Positions 10,708-59,827 are shown, numbered from the stretch's first letter. The stretch is DNA of 64,000 nucleotides from Candidatus Latescibacterota bacterium (GCA_965204745.1 OZ242010.1:2848001-2912000); one strand, 5' to 3'. Notes: a model not told the origin generated them from the sequence alone. Translations and numbers: made by a program.

Positions 10708-10929
10708 TTAGAGTTTCTCAAACTCATTTGGGGTCAATCTCGCTTGGCGCAAAATACTCCGCAATATGCCAATTGGAATCTCACGGTGATGTGGAACAAT
10801 CGTTGTACACACCTTATCATCGCTGTATCGAACAAACTTTACATGACTGCCTCGTTGGCTGATTATTGTGAATCCTGCCTTTTCCAACTTACGCTTGACC
10901 TGACGATAGGGAAGGGGTTTAAGCGGCAC
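10708..10929 (-). CDS. hicA: HicA-family mRNA interferase toxin
   Basis: QRGSHVKF, VPHHREIPIGILRSILRQA. Confidence 0.9.
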   Translation of the reverse strand: MPLKPLPYRQVKRKLEKAGFTIISQRGSHVKFVRYSDDKVCTTIVPHHREIPIGILRSILRQARLTPNEFEKL

Positions 10930-11137
10930 TGACTTTGACCTCAAATTTTCGGATTGCTGGTTTCAAACTCGGTTGCGGGGGTTCAAAGTACAGTTCCAAT
11001 GCTTCCCCGAGATGGGTCAATGCTTCTTCTTCGCTTTCGCCTTGACTGGCAATATCCACCTCTAAACACTGGGCGATAAACCAGTCCTCTTCTCGCCAGA
11101 TACTCGCCGTAAAAACTTGCGTTTTCATCTTTGCCAT
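10919..11137 (-). CDS. hicB: HicB-family antitoxin
   Basis: FIAQCLEVDIASQGESEEEAL..L.EALELY. Confidence 0.9.
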   Translation of the reverse strand: MAKMKTQVFTASIWREEDWFIAQCLEVDIASQGESEEEALTHLGEALELYFEPPQPSLKPAIRKFEVKVSAA

Positions 11138-11180
11138 CTCCTCTCTTCAAGTCAGATTCTCACTTCAATGCCTTGCAAAT

Positions 11181-11570
11181 TTACCATCTTCGTAGCGACA
11201 GGTCGTCAACTTCTTTGAAGTGGTCATCGCGAGAAATTAGAGTGAGTTGATGCTGTTGAGCTATCGCAACAATCCACAGATCGTTTTCCGGAATTGGCCG
11301 GCCTTTTGCCCGCAACTTGTTTTTGATCTGTCCATATATTCGAGCAGTGCCCCAATCACAGCCGACAATTACAGAACTTGAAGCAAATTCATCAATGCGG
11401 GCTTGATTCGTTTCTACACGGGCCGATTTCAGAGCACCGTAGTAGAGTTCACCTAAGACAATACTTGGGATCAATACCTCTTCAGCACGGTATAGATGGT
11501 CCTGTATGGATTGATCTTGGGCAAAGAGCGCGATGACAATATTCGTGTCGAGTAAATACCTACCATTCAT
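11181..11570 (-). CDS. vapC: VapC PIN-domain toxin
   Basis: YLLDTNI, ELYYG, PENDLWI, SRDDHF. Confidence 0.9.
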   Translation of the reverse strand: MNGRYLLDTNIVIALFAQDQSIQDHLYRAEEVLIPSIVLGELYYGALKSARVETNQARIDEFASSSVIVGCDWGTARIYGQIKNKLRAKGRPIPENDLWIVAIAQQHQLTLISRDDHFKEVDDLSLRRW

Positions 11571-11787
11571 CTGTCTGCACCTTTTCACAATCTGCTTTAA
11601 TGGCTTGAGCCATGTCTCGGAGATCGGTCGCCGGTATTTGTCCTGCGAAGACCAACAGATTTTTACCGGGAACGCCCTTGGGATGAGTTGCCAAGTCGTG
11701 GGCTGTCATTTCCAACAGGCGCAACCGGTCGGCGGTGGACAGGGGTTTGACATGGTTTTCATAGACTGCTTCCAAGTGATCCATCAC
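11560..11787 (-). CDS. Putative VapB-type antitoxin
   Basis: 75 aa; overlaps the vapC start; GKNLLVFAGQI. Confidence 0.75.
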   Translation of the reverse strand: MMDHLEAVYENHVKPLSTADRLRLLEMTAHDLATHPKGVPGKNLLVFAGQIPATDLRDMAQAIKADCEKVQTDEW

Positions 11788-11879
11788 AGTATCTCCTTTC
11801 GCGTGAGGATTGTTATTGGCACTTTTGCTCTAAAAAAAAACACCCCTCGCACAACAGTATTTTCCCACCAATCAACTTC

Positions 11880-12089
11880 TCAGAGATTTTCTACGTCGTG
11901 CGTCTCGTTTGTGCGGTCTTGTTGGGCCGCCTTCCTGCGGAGACGCTCCAAGAATGGATCTTTGAGTTCCTGCGATGCGAGCCAATCGAGTTCCTCTTCG
12001 CATGTCATCCCTTTGATCTGAACCGAAAGTTTGGCGCGAATCGAGCGCATCATCTCAACGGAATCGAATTTTTTCTTTTTATTTTTCAT
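11880..12089 (-). CDS. Putative antitoxin
   Basis: KKFDSVEMMRSIR family; overlaps the stop of the PIN gene. Confidence 0.7.
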   Translation of the reverse strand: MKNKKKKFDSVEMMRSIRAKLSVQIKGMTCEEELDWLASQELKDPFLERLRRKAAQQDRTNETHDVENL

Positions 12090-12540
12090 CTCTTAAAACC
12101 TCTCGCGGAGAGCGGATTTCAAGGGTCAAGTAGCCACGCCGGAGATTCACGGAATTGTAGCCATGAATCCGATGCGGATTCACGATGTGTCTGAAGTTCC
12201 AACTCACAAGCACGTTCACGCGGGCAACAGTGGCCATGGCGATGTGTTGAGCATCTGCCCGCATACGCCTGCTGACGATCCCTTCGGATATATAGGCGTC
12301 TGCGAGTTCCTGTGACTCTGTGCTGAGACGCAGAACTTCGATGTGTTCTTCCGGCACCGCGGCAAGGTGAGCACGCACTTCATTCGGAGATGTTGCAAGT
12401 TCTTGAATGGTGAGATCAGAGAGCACGAGCACATAATCTCCCTTGATAAAGCACGCCATCAATCGAATGGAATGCTCGCGCCACTCATCGTCCTCGCATC
12501 CTCCAATCACGGAGGTGTCGATATAGATCCGTGCTTTCAT
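12079..12540 (-). CDS. PIN-domain toxin
   Basis: IYIDTSVIGG, DAQHIA, LVSWNFRHIVN. Confidence 0.9.
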   Translation of the reverse strand: MKARIYIDTSVIGGCEDDEWREHSIRLMACFIKGDYVLVLSDLTIQELATSPNEVRAHLAAVPEEHIEVLRLSTESQELADAYISEGIVSRRMRADAQHIAMATVARVNVLVSWNFRHIVNPHRIHGYNSVNLRRGYLTLEIRSPREVLRDEK

Positions 12541-12544
12541 CTTT

Positions 12545-12675
12545 GGATTGCTGGTTTCAAACTCGGTTGCGGGGGTTCAAAGTACAGTTCCAATGCTTCC
12601 CCGAGATGGGTCAATGCTTCTTCGCTTTCGCCTTGACTGGCAATATCCATCTCTAAACACTGGGCGATAAACCAG
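12545..12675 (-). pseudogene. Truncated second copy of hicB
   Basis: ~130 bp nearly identical to 10951-11084; 5' end replaced by REP-like repeats. Confidence 0.85.
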
Positions 12676-12682
12676 CACCCGA

Positions 12683-12769
12683 AAAAAGGTGAGAAGGTAG
12701 AGGCAAGACGTGAGAAGGCCACCCCAAAAAAGTGAGAAGGTAGAGGTAAGACGTGAGAAGGCCACCCCT
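12683..12769 (+). repeat. Two tandem copies of the REP-like repeat GGTGAGA(A)GGT(G)AGAGGCAAGACG..AGAAGGCCACCCC
   Basis: Same family at 44045-44086 and 46706-46750; reverse-type copies at 13534, 39019, 39081 and 59210. Confidence 0.8.
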
Positions 12770-12809
12770 CTTGTATCTTGGAAGTAAGGGTTAATTAGGA
12801 GTTGCGCCC

Positions 12810-12982
12810 TCGTATCGAGATAAGCCATCTTGATGCCCGGCTCGGGGAAGGCCGGCCCCTCTTGAAGGCGATGACCTTGTAGGTAAGATAGGCCCCCCGA
12901 CCGCCGGGTCTATGCCGAAGAGTATCTAAGTCCCTTGAGGCTGCATATACAAGACCGGTAGACTTGGCGTCAATGGTCGGGA
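12810..12982 (+). ncRNA. Predicted IS110 bridge RNA (5' hairpin, target-binding loop, donor-binding loop)
   Basis: Hairpin at 12812-12836; two stem-internal loop-hairpin modules whose loop segments match the target and donor junction sequences. Confidence 0.7.
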
Positions 12983-13036
12983 TCGAACTCGAGCGCACAC
13001 CAGACCCCTTACAACCCCTCATCACAGGAGGCCCCC

Positions 13037-13535
13037 ATGTCGAAATCTCAACCCGCTTTCGCCGGCATTGATGTCAGTGCCCGCACGTTGTCTGTTGCCC
13101 TGTCCAGACCCGGACAAGCTGTCATGCAAGCGACCTTTGCCAATGATCCCCAAGCCCATAAGCGGTTGCTGAAGTGGCTCACCAAGGGCGGGCACATGGT
13201 CTCTGTGTGCCTCGAAGCGACCGGGCTTTACAGCTTGGGGGTGGCCTTGGCCTTGCATCGGCATCGCCACACAAAGGTCATGGTCGTCAATCCCAAAGCG
13301 ATGAGCAAGTACGGTCAAGCCCGCATGCAACGAGCCAAGACGGATGCGAAGGATGCGTTGTTGATCATGGATTATGCCGAGCGCATGCGTTTGTGCCTTG
13401 CCGAGTGAGCAACGGCTTCAACTGCAAGCCCTCACCAGACGCATTTCAAGCGATCATCAGTGAACAGAGCCGCAACCACGCGCAAAGCTACCACATCCTC
13501 ATCGCACGCGATATTCAGGTGAATATTCGACACCT
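13037..13535 (+). pseudogene. IS110 transposase (RuvC-like DEDD domain), frameshifted and truncated
   Basis: GIDVS, CLEATG, VVNP, KTDAKDA; out-of-frame continuation EQRLQLQALTRRI...IARDIQVNIRHL. Confidence 0.9.
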
Positions 13536-13608
13536 CTTGCCTCTCCCGTCTTGCGTCTTGGCTCACACCGGCTTATCGTATATCTTCTCAAACACCGCGT
13601 CCGCGCCT

Positions 13609-19527: not shown

Positions 19528-19563
19528 GACTGACAACTGACAACTGACAACCGACAACTGACG
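19528..19563. repeat. Heptamer tandem repeat (ACTGACA)n
   Basis: gactgacaactgacaactgacaaccgacaactgac; related runs at 43213-43245, 45346-45366 and 59264-59278. Confidence 0.85.
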
Positions 19564-41260: not shown

Positions 41261-43219
41261 GTGTCTTTGGAAAACGCCCGCGCTGTCGTATTCGATTTCG
41301 ACGGCACGCTTTTTGACTTGGCGCCCGTAGTCAAAGCCGCTCGCAAGCGCGTCGCCACCTTGTTGTTTTCAAACGGGTTTTTCGCCTCTCGTTCCCACGC
41401 GCTCAACCGCATCGAGGTGCTCGAGCGCAAACACGGCCCGTATTATTCGTCCTCGCCCTATTATTTTGCGTTTTTCGACATTGCCAAAGCGATCTTCAAG
41501 GACAAACCCGACCAGGTGCGCGGCTTTCTGGACGAGCGAAATACGGACCCGGACGCCGATCCCGTGGAAGCACTCGTGGGCGAAATGGAGCGCGTGTACA
41601 ACGCCGAAGAAGTCGAGGACATTCGCCCCTATCCGGATGTTTTGCACACCCTGCGGGAATTGCGGATCGCGGGCTACAAACTGTTCTTGGTCACGCTGGG
41701 CAGGTCGCGGCGGCAGCGCAACAAAATTGATCGCCTGGGCATTGCCCCATATCTCGACCGCATCATCAACGAAGGCCCGCCCGCGCACGCGTACTGGTTT
41801 TCAGAACTCATGGAAAGCCACGCCTTGTCGCCGGATGAACTCGTCGTCGTCGGGGATAGGACGCACGACGAAATCCGTGCGGGCAATCGCCAAAACCTCA
41901 CCACCGTCTGGCTGCGGCGCGGCAGATTTTCTCGGGAAACGCCCGCATTGGGCGACCGCCCGGACTACGAAATCAAATACCTCGCCCAACTCTCGACCTT
42001 GCTCCACCTCGCCCGCTTGGGCAAAACCCCGGATCAACTCAAGGTCGCGGTGATCGGCGGCGGCACCGGATTGCCCACGGTGTTGCGCGGGTTGCGGCCC
42101 TATACCCATCATCCGACAGCGGTCGTCGCGGTGACCGACACGGGCGCGTCTTCCGGGCGCATCCGCTGGAATTTGGGCGTGCAACCCCCGGGCGATATCC
42201 GCAACGCCCTCACCGCGCTCGCGGATCCCGCGCAGGTCTCTCAAGGGTTGTTCCGGGTTTTTCAACATCGGTTTCCCAACAGCGAGCAGAAATCCGGCAT
42301 TTTTAAGAACGACCACATCGGCAATTTCCTGGTCGCCGCGCTCACGCAACAACTCGGGGATTTTCACGCGGCCATCCAAACCGCCAGCGATATGCTGCAC
42401 GTTCAGGGCACGATTTACCCGGCGAGTACGGACAACGTCGATATTTGCGCCCAACTGACAAATGGCGAGCACCGCTACACCGAATGGATGGTCAGAAAGC
42501 CCGGCAAGCCGCCCCTTGAGCGGGCCTATCTCGTGTCGAACACCGCGTTGTTGCGCGAACTCGACCGCGAGGGCAGCGCGCTCGAGCGCATGGTCGATCC
42601 GGAAACCGGGCAAGTTGAAATTCGCGCGTGCAAGGGACGAGATGTGGGGTTGGCACAAAACCGGATCAGCGCGCCACGCGGCGCCTTGCAGGCCATTGCA
42701 GACGCCGATGTCGTGGTCATTGGGCCGGGCAGTTTGTTCACCAGCGTGATCACCAACCTCCTCATTCCCGACATTCAGCAGGCCCTCATAGACCGCACGC
42801 GGGGCAAAACCATCTACGTGTGCAATATCGTCACCCAACCCGGGCAGACCGACCACTTCCGCGCATCGGATCACCTCGAGACGATCCTCTGCCACTTTCC
42901 CGGGGATCAGCGCGCGGGCATCATCGACCACATATTGGTGCAAGACCCGCGGGTTTTCCAAACGCCCAAGAGCCGGGCGTGGCATCCCCTGCTCGAGCAG
43001 TACAAAAGAGATGGCAAAATTCTCGTCGCCTGCGATTCGGAAACCCTCGACGCGATGGGCGCGTGGACGCGGGCGGATTTCGTCGAGGAATTTCAACCCG
43101 AAGCCACCGAGCGCGGTGTGGGCGATTTCATCAGCCACGACCCCGCCAAAGTCGCCGACGCGATCTGTCGCGTTTTCTGCGGCTTGAGCGTGCCGGATTA
43201 TTGGGGGATGGATCAGTAG
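41261..43219 (+). CDS. HAD hydrolase fused to a YvcK/GlmR (CofD-like, UPF0052) domain
   Basis: FDFDGTL and VGD motifs, then GGGTGL, DTGASSG, PPGDIRN, GPGSLFTS. Confidence 0.88.
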   Translation: MSLENARAVVFDFDGTLFDLAPVVKAARKRVATLLFSNGFFASRSHALNRIEVLERKHGPYYSSSPYYFAFFDIAKAIFKDKPDQVRGFLDERNTDPDADPVEALVGEMERVYNAEEVEDIRPYPDVLHTLRELRIAGYKLFLVTLGRSRRQRNKIDRLGIAPYLDRIINEGPPAHAYWFSELMESHALSPDELVVVGDRTHDEIRAGNRQNLTTVWLRRGRFSRETPALGDRPDYEIKYLAQLSTLLHLARLGKTPDQLKVAVIGGGTGLPTVLRGLRPYTHHPTAVVAVTDTGASSGRIRWNLGVQPPGDIRNALTALADPAQVSQGLFRVFQHRFPNSEQKSGIFKNDHIGNFLVAALTQQLGDFHAAIQTASDMLHVQGTIYPASTDNVDICAQLTNGEHRYTEWMVRKPGKPPLERAYLVSNTALLRELDREGSALERMVDPETGQVEIRACKGRDVGLAQNRISAPRGALQAIADADVVVIGPGSLFTSVITNLLIPDIQQALIDRTRGKTIYVCNIVTQPGQTDHFRASDHLETILCHFPGDQRAGIIDHILVQDPRVFQTPKSRAWHPLLEQYKRDGKILVACDSETLDAMGAWTRADFVEEFQPEATERGVGDFISHDPAKVADAICRVFCGLSVPDYWGMDQ

Positions 43220-43315
43220 TCAGTAGTCAGTAGTCAGTAGTCAGTCCGCCCCGCCCCAAGCGGTCAGCAGTCAGCGGGGCTGAATCCCAAAAGCGAAATC
43301 ACAGGCGGATTTCAA

Positions 43316-44002
43316 ATGACCGAAAAAATTAAAGGCATCATCTTCGATCTCGACGATACCTTGTTCGACTGCATGGGGCAACTCAACCAAACGGCCAGGC
43401 GCAGGGCCGCGCGCATCCTCGCTTCGGCATGCCCTGGCCTCTCCGTTGAAACCGCTTGCCGGCAACAGGAATCGCTCGCCCAAATCCAGGGATCATCAGA
43501 GGCGATTTGCGCGCTCGGTGGGCAATACGATATTTCGCCTCGCATCGTCAAACGGGCACTCGATGCGTACAATTCCCGCATAGTAGAAGCCATCGCGCCA
43601 TTCCCCGACGCGCTCGACACCCTGGCGACATTGGTTCAGCGCGGTTATGCACTCGCCTTGGTCACGGCCGGCCTTCCCGAACGCCAGCGCGAAAAAGTTC
43701 ACCTGCTCGGCTTGGGCGATTATTTCAGCGAGACCGACAACACGCTCATCTTATGCGACACCCGCAAAACCGACAAAGGGCCATGCCTCGCGCAGGCCGC
43801 CAAAACCCTCGCACTGCCCCACGGCCAAATCCTCTGCGTGGGCGACAAACTCACCGAAGAAATCGCCGCCGCCAACACTTTGGGGATGACCACTGTTCGC
43901 ATGCGCCACGGGGTGCAAAAACACAGAACACCCCAAACGCCAATAGAACAACCCGATTGCGAAATAGACCGCATCTCCCAAGTGCTGTCACTCCTGCCAT
44001 AA
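43316..44002 (+). CDS. HAD-family hydrolase
   Basis: FDLDDTL, VGDKLTEEI. Confidence 0.88.
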   Translation: MTEKIKGIIFDLDDTLFDCMGQLNQTARRRAARILASACPGLSVETACRQQESLAQIQGSSEAICALGGQYDISPRIVKRALDAYNSRIVEAIAPFPDALDTLATLVQRGYALALVTAGLPERQREKVHLLGLGDYFSETDNTLILCDTRKTDKGPCLAQAAKTLALPHGQILCVGDKLTEEIAAANTLGMTTVRMRHGVQKHRTPQTPIEQPDCEIDRISQVLSLLP

Positions 44003-44142
44003 CAAAAACGAGCAACCCGACGGGCAAGCGCGGGGCATTGTCCAAAAAGGTGAGAGGTGAGAGGCAAGACGCGAGAAGGCCACCCCGCTCCCCTCTTGTA
44101 TCTTTGGGCGAACACGGGGACATCCTACATTTGTTTGGATCT

Positions 44143-44512
44143 CCTTTGAACTGGCTGTTGCCAGTTGTACCCCGCTCGCCTTTTGTGTTTTTGTGCCTTT
44201 TGTGGCTCCCATCTCGCCTTTGAACTGGCTATCGCCAGTTGTACCCTGCTCGCCTTTGAACTGGCTATCGCCAGTTGTACCCTGCTCGCCTTTGAACTGG
44301 CTATCGCCAGTTGTACCCCGCTCGTGTTTTTGTATTTTTGAACTGGCTGTTGCCAGTTGTACCCCGCTCGCCTTTGAACTGGCTGTTGCCAGTTGTACCC
44401 CGCTCGCCTTTTGTGTTTTTGTGCCTTTTGTGGCTCCCATCTCGCCTTTGAACTGGTTGTTGCCAGTTGTACCCCGCTTGTGTTTTTGTGCTTTTTGTGG
44501 CTCCCATTGTGG
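44143..44512. repeat. Array of seven ~36-bp palindromic units (AACTGGC-N4-GCCAGTT) interspersed with TTTTGTG repeats
   Basis: Cores near 44149, 44223, 44259, 44295, 44341, 44377 and 44451; same family inverted at 62215-62360. Confidence 0.9.
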
Positions 44513-44513
44513 C

Positions 44514-45314
44514 TCATCGCCTCTCGCGCCTTCCCTGAACTCGAATCTCATCCCCGCGTTTGATGCCGAGCACGCGGCTTGCACTGCCTCCGCGAATCGC
44601 GATTTCCAACGTGTCCAAGCTGCCGTAAAGCGCGAGGGCGCGCCCCTCTGCGACATTGGCATACGTTTGGTCTATCCGATCAAAACCGGTCTTGCCCACG
44701 GCGATCTCGAAATTCCCATCGGGAAATTTTTCGTCGATACGCGCCCGGGAGATCATCGAGATGGCATTGCCAAAATGATCCACACTGACCACCCGCCCAA
44801 TGAGTGCGTCCGGCTCTTCTTCAACGCGCCACAAATCGCATGTGACCGGATCGTCAATTTCCGGTCCCACCTCGCCACAGGGCACGCCCGTGAGCAAACG
44901 CGCCCCCACCAGCGCGAACACATCGCGGCCGTGAAATGTCGAACTGACCTGCGGACGCATCAACGCCGCATTTTCAATCGCCACAATCCTGCGGACAGAT
45001 TCTTGCGCGTAAACCCATGAAAACAGGCCATTGTCCGGCCCCACATACACAAAGTGCTCGGTTTCAACGACAATGCCCCTGCGGTCGCTGCCCACGCCTG
45101 GGTCAATCACGCCGATGTGTACCGTGCCCGCGGGAAAAAATCCGCATGCACAGCGCATGGCAAACGCACCCGCGACAATGTCCTGCGCCGGCACTCGATG
45201 CGTAATATCCACGATTTGAGCATCGGGCAAACAGGTGAGCACCACGCCCTTCATCGCGGCGACATACCCATCGGAAAGGCCGAAATCCGTTGTCAGGGTT
45301 AGAATTTGGGGCAT
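44514..45314 (-). CDS. SAM hydroxide adenosyltransferase / chlorinase-fluorinase family (DUF62)
   Basis: TLTTDFG, IDPGVG, GPDNG, TFHGRD, DHFGN. Confidence 0.92.
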   Translation of the reverse strand: MPQILTLTTDFGLSDGYVAAMKGVVLTCLPDAQIVDITHRVPAQDIVAGAFAMRCACGFFPAGTVHIGVIDPGVGSDRRGIVVETEHFVYVGPDNGLFSWVYAQESVRRIVAIENAALMRPQVSSTFHGRDVFALVGARLLTGVPCGEVGPEIDDPVTCDLWRVEEEPDALIGRVVSVDHFGNAISMISRARIDEKFPDGNFEIAVGKTGFDRIDQTYANVAEGRALALYGSLDTLEIAIRGGSASRVLGIKRGDEIRVQGRRERR

Positions 45315-45404
45315 GATGAGTTCTCGGTGATCGGGAAAACAAGCGGTCAGTCGTCAGTCGTCAGTCTCAATCCCAAGCGGTTAGCGAGGGTTGATCGTTG
45401 CCTT

Positions 45405-46649: not shown

Positions 46650-46795
46650 AGTATCTTTCGCCTCCTTCCAAAGCAAAAATTTAAGAATCTTGTATCTTCG
46701 GGCAAAAAAAGGTGAGAGGTGAGAGGCAAGACGGGAGAAGGCCAACCCAACCCTCTTGCCTCTTACGCCTTTCATCTTGCCTCTGTTGCTTTTTT

Positions 46796-59245: not shown

Positions 59246-59275
59246 GGGTTGAGCGGGGTGGGAACTGACTACTGA

Positions 59276-59827
59276 CTACTGACCACTCTCCCTTGCCTTG
59301 GCTTCAAGGTCTTTGGCCAGGGCTTCGATGACCTTGTCGGTCAAGTCGTGTGTTTCTTTTGCGTAGGCCAAAGCCGTTGTGTTGAGCACAAAATCAAAGC
59401 CCTCGTCTTCGGCCACCTGCTTGATGATCTCATTCACGGTTTGAATGATCGGCTCGGACAATTCCGCGGTCTTGCGCGCGAGGCGACCGCGTTGGGGATC
59501 TGCGGCTTCCTGCATAAACCGCTGCAATTCCTGTTGTTTTTTCACGATGGCCTTTTGTTCTTCTTGTTTGCGTTTGTCACTCAGCAACAGGGCTTGGCGT
59601 TCGTACGTTTCCTGCATCTTCTCCAGATCGTTTTGCATGGTGCTGATCTCGCGCCCGAGTTCGTCTTCGTAACGGCCGAACTCCTTCAACGCATCTTGAT
59701 AGGGTTTGTACTGATCCAAAATTTTCTGCGAATCGATGTACCCCAGCTTGATCTCGGCACCGGCAGAACTGACCATGCCGACCAGTGCCAGAGACAGCGC
59801 GACCAAAAACATGCGACAACGTGTCAT
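59276..59827 (-). CDS. skp: OmpH/Skp periplasmic chaperone
   Basis: Signal peptide; KLGYIDSQKIL; DLTDKVI; lies downstream of bamA. Confidence 0.92.
   Translation of the reverse strand: MTRCRMFLVALSLALVGMVSSAGAEIKLGYIDSQKILDQYKPYQDALKEFGRYEDELGREISTMQNDLEKMQETYERQALLLSDKRKQEEQKAIVKKQQELQRFMQEAADPQRGRLARKTAELSEPIIQTVNEIIKQVAEDEGFDFVLNTTALAYAKETHDLTDKVIEALAKDLEAKARESGQ

Follow-up and report, generated by a model that had tools for sequence, protein, structure and literature searches.

Positions 12772–13536 (plus strand) of the window, as we denote the whole stretch of 64,000 nucleotides analyzed here, are very probably a decayed, 3'-truncated insertion sequence of the IS110 family that resembles IS621 and whose left end, at about 12786–12982, encodes a canonical bridge RNA. 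The anatomy of the RNA, the junctions of the element, the covariation of guides with flanks, the covariation within the RNA structure and the homology to solved bridge recombinases were all observed in this analysis. The features of the locus are as follows.

12676..12769, plus: left flank, two 43-bp units of reverse-oriented heptamers (GTGAGAAGGTAGAGGYAAGACGTGAGAAGGCCACCCC) that end in the left target half CACCCCT
12770..12771, plus: left CT core dinucleotide; CT stands at both ends in 52/52 full-length copies
12772..13536, plus: truncated element comprising the left end, the gene for the bridge RNA and the recombinase gene's 5' 40% (blastn, alignment)
12774..12779, plus: TATCTT, putative −10 box of a circle-junction promoter
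12812..12836, plus: 5' stem-loop of 10 bp with the 5-nt loop AAGCC
12843..12899, plus: target-binding loop module (RNAalifold, covariance model, pair counts, guide/flank matches), with basal stem CGGGG/CCCCG and GGCC/GGCC
12856..12862, plus: left target guide (LTG), CCCCUCU
12865..12878, plus: stem-loop between the two target guides, with AAGG (12865–12868) paired to CCTT (12875–12878)
12881..12887, plus: right target guide (RTG), AGGUAAG
12888..12889, plus: putative handshake guide AU, 3' of the RTG
12902..12981, plus: donor-binding loop module (RNAalifold, covariance model, pair counts), with a basal stem of 12902–12918 and 12955–12969 that GGUCGGG at 12975–12981 possibly extends
12919..12927, plus: left donor guide (LDG), AGAGUAUCU (DNA AGAGTATCT)
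12929..12942, plus: donor stem-loop
12947..12954, plus: right donor guide (RDG), AUACAAG (12947–12953), followed by the putative handshake base A (12954); DNA ATACAAGA
13037..13408, plus: recombinase gene remnant, the first ~120 codons with the DEDD RuvC-like domain, then a frameshift and a stop
13537..13575, plus: right flank of forward heptamers (TTGCCTCTCCCGTCTTGCGTCTTGG...), in agreement with what the paralogous empty sites have on their right
46749..46761, plus: unoccupied near-cognate target AACCCT-CT-TGCCT of the same repeat family

Comparison with the genome by blastn and alignment to an intact copy identified 12772–13536 as a decayed copy of an element of ~1.29 kb, from which the right end and ~510 bp of the 3' part are missing. 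The left junction reads CACCCCT (12763–12769), CT (12770–12771) and TGTAT (12772–12776), and Tandem Repeats Finder (TRF) assigned the left flank a period of 43 with 2.1 copies. At the opposite end, the last bases of the copy are ...CGACACCTC, which are followed by AAACGCC in the intact copy, and the right target half CT-TGCCT occupies 13536–13542, i.e. position 13536 plus the right flank. An earlier note on this DNA, made from the sequence alone, had reported this resumption of the target on the far side, and all coordinates that it gave proved to be correct. Over 12772–13406 the window copy has the sequence of subfamily A (8 copies), with zero substitutions over 635 nt; past 13406 it carries deletions of 1, 7, 11 and 12 bp. 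The open reading frame at 13037–13408 matched the Pfam profile PF01548 (DEDD_Tnp_IS110) with an E-value of 1.7e-19 over profile positions 1–108 of 155.

The genome (5.48 Mb, one contig) contains 52 full-length copies of the element as detected by blastn, each 1288–1294 bp long counting one core, and an intact open reading frame for a 335-residue DEDD/Ser recombinase is present in 51 of them. This protein matched both PF01548 (E 4.6e-23) and PF02371 (E 6.6e-20). A phmmer search of the PDB sequences returned the ISCro4 transposase 9t56 as the best match (E 7.9e-41, residues 7–332 aligned), and the IS621 transposase 8wt6 was matched with an E-value of 2e-36. Residues D12, E60, D106 and S248 were invariant among seven aligned relatives, and D103 was present in six of the seven. 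Two of the full-length copies, at genome positions 1122885 and 1124187 (both minus), lie head to tail with only CT-TACCT-CT between them, the second copy having inserted in a target half-site made by the right flank of the first one. A further truncated copy, at genome 2846836–2847966, ends ~35 bp before the start of the window and carries a bridge-RNA module of 134.5 bits.

Parts of the element were also found as contigs in sequencing runs (20 rows from 8 studies, with no RNA run listed among them), the labels of which were sponge, marine metagenome or coded names; in the contigs of four runs the element was present in several variants and covered many times as deeply as its flanks. The joint of right end and left end expected for a circle was sought in the contigs of these four runs and was not found there. 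A recurrent joint in the run contigs (40 to 1407) was considered as an empty site and was rejected, because it contains 18 foreign letters and its shorter side has only 20 letters. When the intact element was compared by blastn (distant mode) with 5,426 genomes of E. coli, no match was obtained. Our literature search, the scope of which ended short of the supplementary catalogues of Durrant et al., listed no publication linking IS110 to Latescibacteria, Poribacteria or heptamer repeats, and none on this element.

All 52 full-length copies have the form LT-CT-TGTAT...AGAGTAT-CT-RT, where LT and RT denote the left and right target halves: they start with TGTAT, end with AGAGTAT and are bordered by CT on both sides. 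The donor AGAGTAT-CT-TGTAT, which had been predicted from the window copy with its missing right end, is thus realized in 52/52 intact copies. The junctions read (T)CCCCT-CT-TGTAT on the left and AGAGTAT-CT-TRCCT on the right. Removing the element together with one CT (TGTAT...AGAGTAT-CT) restores heptamer arrays that are in phase, for example at copies 1600664 and 5078143, as well as paralogous empty sites; five such sites of the window copy read ...GAGAAGGCCACCCCT-CT-TGCCTCT.... Insertion occurs without target duplication and leaves one CT core on each side.

The flanks of the element consist of 7-bp tandem arrays of CCTCTTG, CCTCTTA, CCTCTCC and CGTCTTG, often beside a GGCCACCCC centre flanked on either side by inverted arrays. 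As a target, this is a microsatellite-like tandem array of heptamers (CCTCTTR) rather than a palindromic REP; the genome's REP-like hairpins (GGGCGAGCACGGGGGCATCGCC, 188 matches) do not serve as insertion sites, so that the REP-like target named in the earlier note was only loosely right. The repeat is abundant, with 392 occurrences of CCTCTTRCCTCTTR in the genome against 0.15 expected. A near-cognate site, described before as empty-looking, was located at 46749–46761; compared with the guides, it agrees at four of five bases in LT and at five of five in RT, the latter including one G·U wobble. The window also contains arrays of other 7-bp units (ACTGACA and TCAGTAG) and a hairpin repeat of 36/74 bp (CCTTTGAACTGGCTATCGCCAGTTGTACCCCGCTCG), at 19529–19562, 43213–45366, 59264–59287 and elsewhere; between its genes, this genome is a mosaic built from several short repeat modules.

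The neighborhood of the element on its left side is a cluster of small genes, toxin-antitoxin-like, on the minus strand (10708–12722). It includes two PIN-type open reading frames, at 11181–11588 and at 12079–12540, the latter with a weak Pfam PIN_3 match, and a pair at 10708–10944 and 10919–11137 that looks HicA-like/HicB-like, the names having been given from reading the translations. The open reading frame at 12537–12722 (minus) is a shortened paralogue of 10919–11137 and extends into the block of repeats next to the element.

The architecture of the RNA was derived from comparison of relatives. RNAalifold of 15 sequences yielded two modules, each comprising a basal stem, an internal loop with two guide segments and a distal stem-loop. 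Comparative folding thereby puts all four segments where the earlier note had placed them, a placement whose absence, like other ends or targets in intact copies, it had named as grounds for rejecting its reading. The 5' hairpin at 12812–12836, likewise described there, has 10 bp and is predicted by the MFE and by the centroid fold of 12765–13036 alike; it is absent from the RNAalifold consensus of the 15 relatives. The single-sequence fold of this segment does not reach significance (z = −1.82), with 13 of 200 shuffled sequences folding equally well, and its MFE structure pairs part of the target-guide segments together and likewise part of the donor-guide segments. The place of the guides in internal loops rests on the comparative analysis, not on thermodynamics.

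A covariance model was built from the RNAalifold structure minus the four guide-guide pairs. Its sole match in the 64-kb window was 12840–12982 (159.7 bits, E 8e-36). In the whole genome it gave 60 matches, which correspond to the 52 full-length copies, seven truncated copies including that of the window, and one weak match of 32.5 bits. Related loci, drawn from many phyla, gave full-length matches 40–55 nt upstream of the recombinase coding sequence in 60 of 62 cases (loci L032 and L097 were missed). Over 44 distinct sequences, in an alignment fitted to the model, 26 of the 30 pairs show compensatory changes and 92.6% of the cells are paired; the covariation score of this model-fitted alignment was 0.406, compared with 0.159 upon shuffling (reached in 0 of 500) and at most 0.074 in slid registers. 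With Rfam 15, the window gave no match at gathering thresholds, and a search of 12700–13100 with E-values up to 10 returned just SpF59 and HgcE, unrelated families that scored far below the gathering cut-offs (E-values 0.45 and 1.2).

Among the relatives, the target loop varies widely and the donor loop is conserved, in agreement with the description of such RNAs in PMC11208160. The core-pairing CU of the LTG is one nucleotide farther from the distal stem (linker UG) in the present element and in the OY282377 family, most relatives having a linker of 1 nt. Many relatives have C instead of U at the second core position of the LDG (GGAGUAUCC), yet have CT at their right end. Pairing is possible between the AU after the RTG and donor A6 and T7, and between the A after the RDG and target T7, which makes these bases putative handshake guides; in most lineages of a small sample of relatives, the base that follows the RDG is the complement of target position 7, two lineages combining G and C7, one A and T7, and one having G·T.

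The guides were compared with the flanks of each copy by the rule described for IS621, in which the left guides pair with the bottom strand and the right guides with the top strand, the CT core included (PMC11208160). In all 52 copies the LDG equals right end plus core (AGAGTAT-CT), and the RDG is the reverse complement of core plus left end (CT-TGTAT). As predicted in the earlier note, intact copies are inserted at CCCCT-CT-TRCCT: over 5 nt, the left flank agrees exactly with the LTG of the same copy in 45 of 52 cases and the right flank with the complement of its RTG in 29 of 52, and if G·U wobble is allowed the count rises to 47/52 on either side. The remainder comprises five copies with distal LT mismatches and five whose RT deviates at 1 to 3 bases. 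That TACCT and TGCCT both serve as targets is explained by the U of the RTG AGGUAAG, which accepts A or G.

Guides and targets also change together within the genome. Subfamily C (5 copies, ~88% identical) carries the LTG CGCCUCU (UGCCUCU in one of the five) and the RTG AAGUAAG, and its flanks read TCGCCT-CT in three of five copies and CT-TACTT in four of five. Copy 1297030, with the guides UCCCUCU and AGGUGAG, is flanked by TTCCCT-CT and CT-CACCT. Unoccupied sites that match are plentiful too, with 70 occurrences of CCCCTCTTRCCT against 1.8 expected and 25 of CGCCTCTTACTT against 0.6. Three guide variants are thus found in one genome, each in a matching target variant, which constitutes natural retargeting. 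The same correspondence was seen among relatives with 46–83% protein identity: Latescibacterota MAGs at 76–83% combine AGAAAAG with CT-TTTCT, or CUCGCCUCU with CTCGCCT-CT; a relative at 59% has the guide AAAUAGUCU and the flank AAATAGT-CT; and relatives at ~50%, from other phyla, combine CCGUUAG with CT-AACGG. An automatic search for boundaries placed both ends in 23 of the 55 distinct loci of relatives. For these 23 loci, the match in RT beyond the core had a mean of 4.09 nt, compared with 1.52 nt when guides were permuted (0 of 2000 permutations reached the observed value); the match in LT had a mean of 1.83 nt compared with 0.85 nt (0 of 2000), a figure that is an underestimate of uncertain size because the finder of the left-end boundary is noisy. 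The junction and guide/flank matches are far beyond chance, since they recur in 52/52 copies and since guides and flanks change together.

These data bear directly on two other ways to read the locus. The segments called guides could be subterminal repeats bound by the transposase at the DNA level, or parts of a leader that regulates translation, with no RNA guide involved. Such a reading would account for the recurrence of the element's own ends in the donor-loop segments, expected of subterminal repeats, and for a thermodynamic fold that is not significant. We nevertheless consider it very improbable: the target-loop segments match and covary with host DNA outside the element, both within the genome and across phyla, which protein-binding repeats would not do; the helices around the loops keep their pairing through compensatory changes, a constraint at the level of RNA; and the closest solved homologues are RNA-guided. 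Alternatively, the tip of the left end, TGTATCTT, could belong to the host repeat and not to the element, the donor reading then being an artefact; the earlier note had itself raised this caveat, pointing to TCTTGTATCTT, which is indeed present near 44094 and 46688. CTTGTATCTT does have 156 copies that lie outside the element, and a family of REP-like hairpins carries most of them as its tail. This explanation was tested and rejected, and we regard it as hardly credible any longer, because removal of TGTAT...AGAGTAT-CT restores in-phase arrays and paralogous empty sites, because the RDG changes with the left-end tip among relatives (ACAAG/TGTAC, TCACAAG/TGTGA and TATCAAG/TGATA) and because the IS621 donor used in work with E. 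coli has the same TGTAT (PMC13396178).

Without a right end and an intact recombinase, the window copy cannot move by itself, and its RNA, being identical to that of the eight subfamily-A copies, adds no specificity. We conclude that it is a young, inert relic, one of seven truncated copies that bear the module. It could also be viewed as a retained orphan bridge-RNA gene that is expressed from the chromosome and serves the recombinase of intact copies in trans. In line with this, its RNA module is intact and equals that of subfamily A while its recombinase gene is broken, six more truncated copies keep the module at ≥100 bits, the IS621 bridge RNA is reported to work in trans (PMC11208160), and integrated IS621 loci are described as expressing the RNA weakly (PMC13626964). 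We nonetheless judge the orphan gene unlikely. Zero substitutions over 635 nt mean that the copy is simply young, with too little time for selection to show; a scan of the integrated window copy revealed no sigma-70-like promoter, the −35 half having gone with the missing right end; eight intact copies encode the same RNA; fragments of the element without the RNA module, detected by blastn, are present in the genome as well; and its location at the 5' end is by itself enough for the module to survive 3' truncations. To describe the RNA as persisting beside a dead transposase was accordingly an overstatement for a young relic that is one of seven truncated copies beside 52 full ones.

The origin of the truncation was considered separately. 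Exchange at the CT core by the recombinase, between an internal ...GACAC-CT-CAAAC and the right junction, predicts GACAC-CT-TGCCT; the window has GACACCT-CT-TGCCT, whose extra CT is at odds with a clean CT-core product at the 3' junction, and this origin was rejected. A better fit is slippage on microhomology (CCTC/ACCTC) with a flanking heptamer, which may have generated this end.

The ends of the intact element, when joined, read TTGACC-N13/14-TAT, CT, TG, TATCTT, with a spacer of 17 nt in subfamily A or 18 nt in subfamily B. In every relative examined, TTGAYY lies equally far from the right end; in the window copy, the −35 motif TTGACC went with the right end. At the sequence level, a promoter would therefore be rebuilt across the right/left-end junction of the circle. 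The circle junction is, in addition, a perfect dimer of a heptamer, (GTATCTT)x2, with the same period as the targeted arrays.

On the model of IS621, the intact element would excise as a circle, in which the joining of right to left end would set the −35 box (TTGACC) 17–18 bp from the −10 box (TATCTT), and the rebuilt promoter should drive synthesis of an RNA of ~200 nt and of the downstream recombinase mRNA. The RNA would fold into the 5' hairpin and two modules, each formed by a stem, an internal loop and a stem-loop. In the target-binding loop, the U of the RTG would accept A or G of the target; in the donor-binding loop, AGAGUAUCU and AUACAAG would hold the circle junction AGAGTAT-CT-TGTAT. 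A tetramer of the 335-residue DEDD/Ser recombinase would then exchange strands at the CT core, and the element would land without duplication in the CCTCTYR heptamer arrays of the genome. Transcription, RNA binding and catalysis are attributed to this element by homology to IS621.

The presence of the left-end tip in host repeats raises a further question. CTTGTATCTT, which comprises the core and the first 8 bases of the left end, occurs 212 times in the genome, 156 of them outside the element (5.7 expected). The outside occurrences mostly precede YGGGCGAGCACGGGGGCATCGCCCCTAC, which on the other strand forms a GC-rich palindrome headed by GTAG, i.e. a REP-like unit; examples of such tails in the window are 44088–44130 and 46686–46705. 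Many of the outside copies of CT-TGTATCTT are preceded by ..CCCCT and so mimic the left junction of the element (left target, core, right donor half). Upstream of the 188 REP-like hairpins, TGTATCTT is exact in 66 cases and has one mismatch in 32, the other 90 having other heptamer variants or none. A second repeat (CCTCGTAGGCACAGGCGTAGCCTACAACGAAGCG...), present at ~17 sites such as 234964, 415939 and 1079907, is preceded by CCCC-CT-TGTATCT-T. Its homologue in a related MAG (downstream flank of L004) reads CCCCCTT-CCTCGTAGGC and has exactly 7 bp less, corresponding to left-end tip plus core.

The idea that the REP tail is an excision footprint is not supported as it stands, because the heptamers are graded (GTATCTT, GCATCTT, ATATCTT, GTCTCTT, none) and lack a clean presence or absence of 7 bp. 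Candidates for the origin of the tail are common descent with the heptamer family, the spreading of footprints, and functional mimicry of the left junction. It is conceivable, if rather doubtful, that the CT-TGTATCTT sites of the host are half-sites of the bridge RNA that recombine with the right junction, or 7-bp excision footprints that spread with the repeat. Half-site recombination, if it occurred, would move or delete DNA between sites, and if either reading were true the element would shape the repeat landscape of its genome beyond landing there.

IS621 of E. coli, from the IS110 group, is among the closest systems known. The IS621 donor (dDNA) oligonucleotide contains ACAGTATCTTGTAT (PMC13396178), and the donor of the present element, AGAGTAT-CT-TGTAT, is identical to it at 13 of 14 positions, so that the likeness named in the earlier note is confirmed with a single differing base. 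The two systems further share the PF01548 plus PF02371 architecture with its DEDD and Ser residues, an RNA encoded in the left end between core and coding sequence, the CT core, the succession of target loop and donor loop and the same strand rule (Durrant et al. 2024, PMC11208160; Hiraizumi et al. 2024, PMC11208158). The module order described for IS621 is a stem, the LTG, a stem-loop and the RTG, then a stem, the LDG, a stem-loop and the RDG (PMC11208158). Common to both are also the GU linker before the RTG, the AU after the RTG, which stands at the place of the IS621 handshake guide (according to the rule in PMC11208158), and, at the sequence level, a promoter split across the circle junction. 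The differences concern the target, which is ATCAGGC-CT-AC in REPs for IS621 (PMC11208160) and CCCCT-CT-TRCCT in heptamer arrays here; the size of the target module (65 nt in IS621, 57 nt here); the linker after the LTG (1 nt in IS621, 2 nt here); and the setting, the present element having a Latescibacterota-like host phylum, 52 copies per genome and three co-resident guide variants, and being known from its sequence alone. A new specificity may at most be claimed for the target loop; the donor loop is of the conserved IS621 type.

The likeness to ISCro4 (PDB 9t56) lies in the protein sequence, the level at which the two were compared. ISPpu10 (bioRxiv 10.64898/2026.03.19.712850) and the IS110 elements of the survey by Tobes and Pareja in 2006 (cited in PMC11208160) are described as likewise site-specific in an abundant intergenic host repeat. 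For REP-targeting IS110 elements such as ISPpu10 this repeat is the palindromic REP, in contrast to the 7-bp tandem array found here, where the REP-like hairpins of the genome share CTTGTATCTT with the left-end junction. Members of the IS1111 group have the same recombinase family and guide logic but carry the RNA in the right end (PMC11208160), not in the left end upstream of the coding sequence.

Taken together, the element encodes a genuine IS621-like bridge RNA and represents a system of known kind, with no new mechanism. A bridge RNA of this kind could be decoded correctly by a reader without tools. The element provides a small natural set of guide/target pairs together with an intact 335-residue recombinase from a phylum far from E. 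coli, and a single genome in which three guide variants reside in matching variants of a 7-bp repeat is a clean natural example of the programmability of bridge RNAs.
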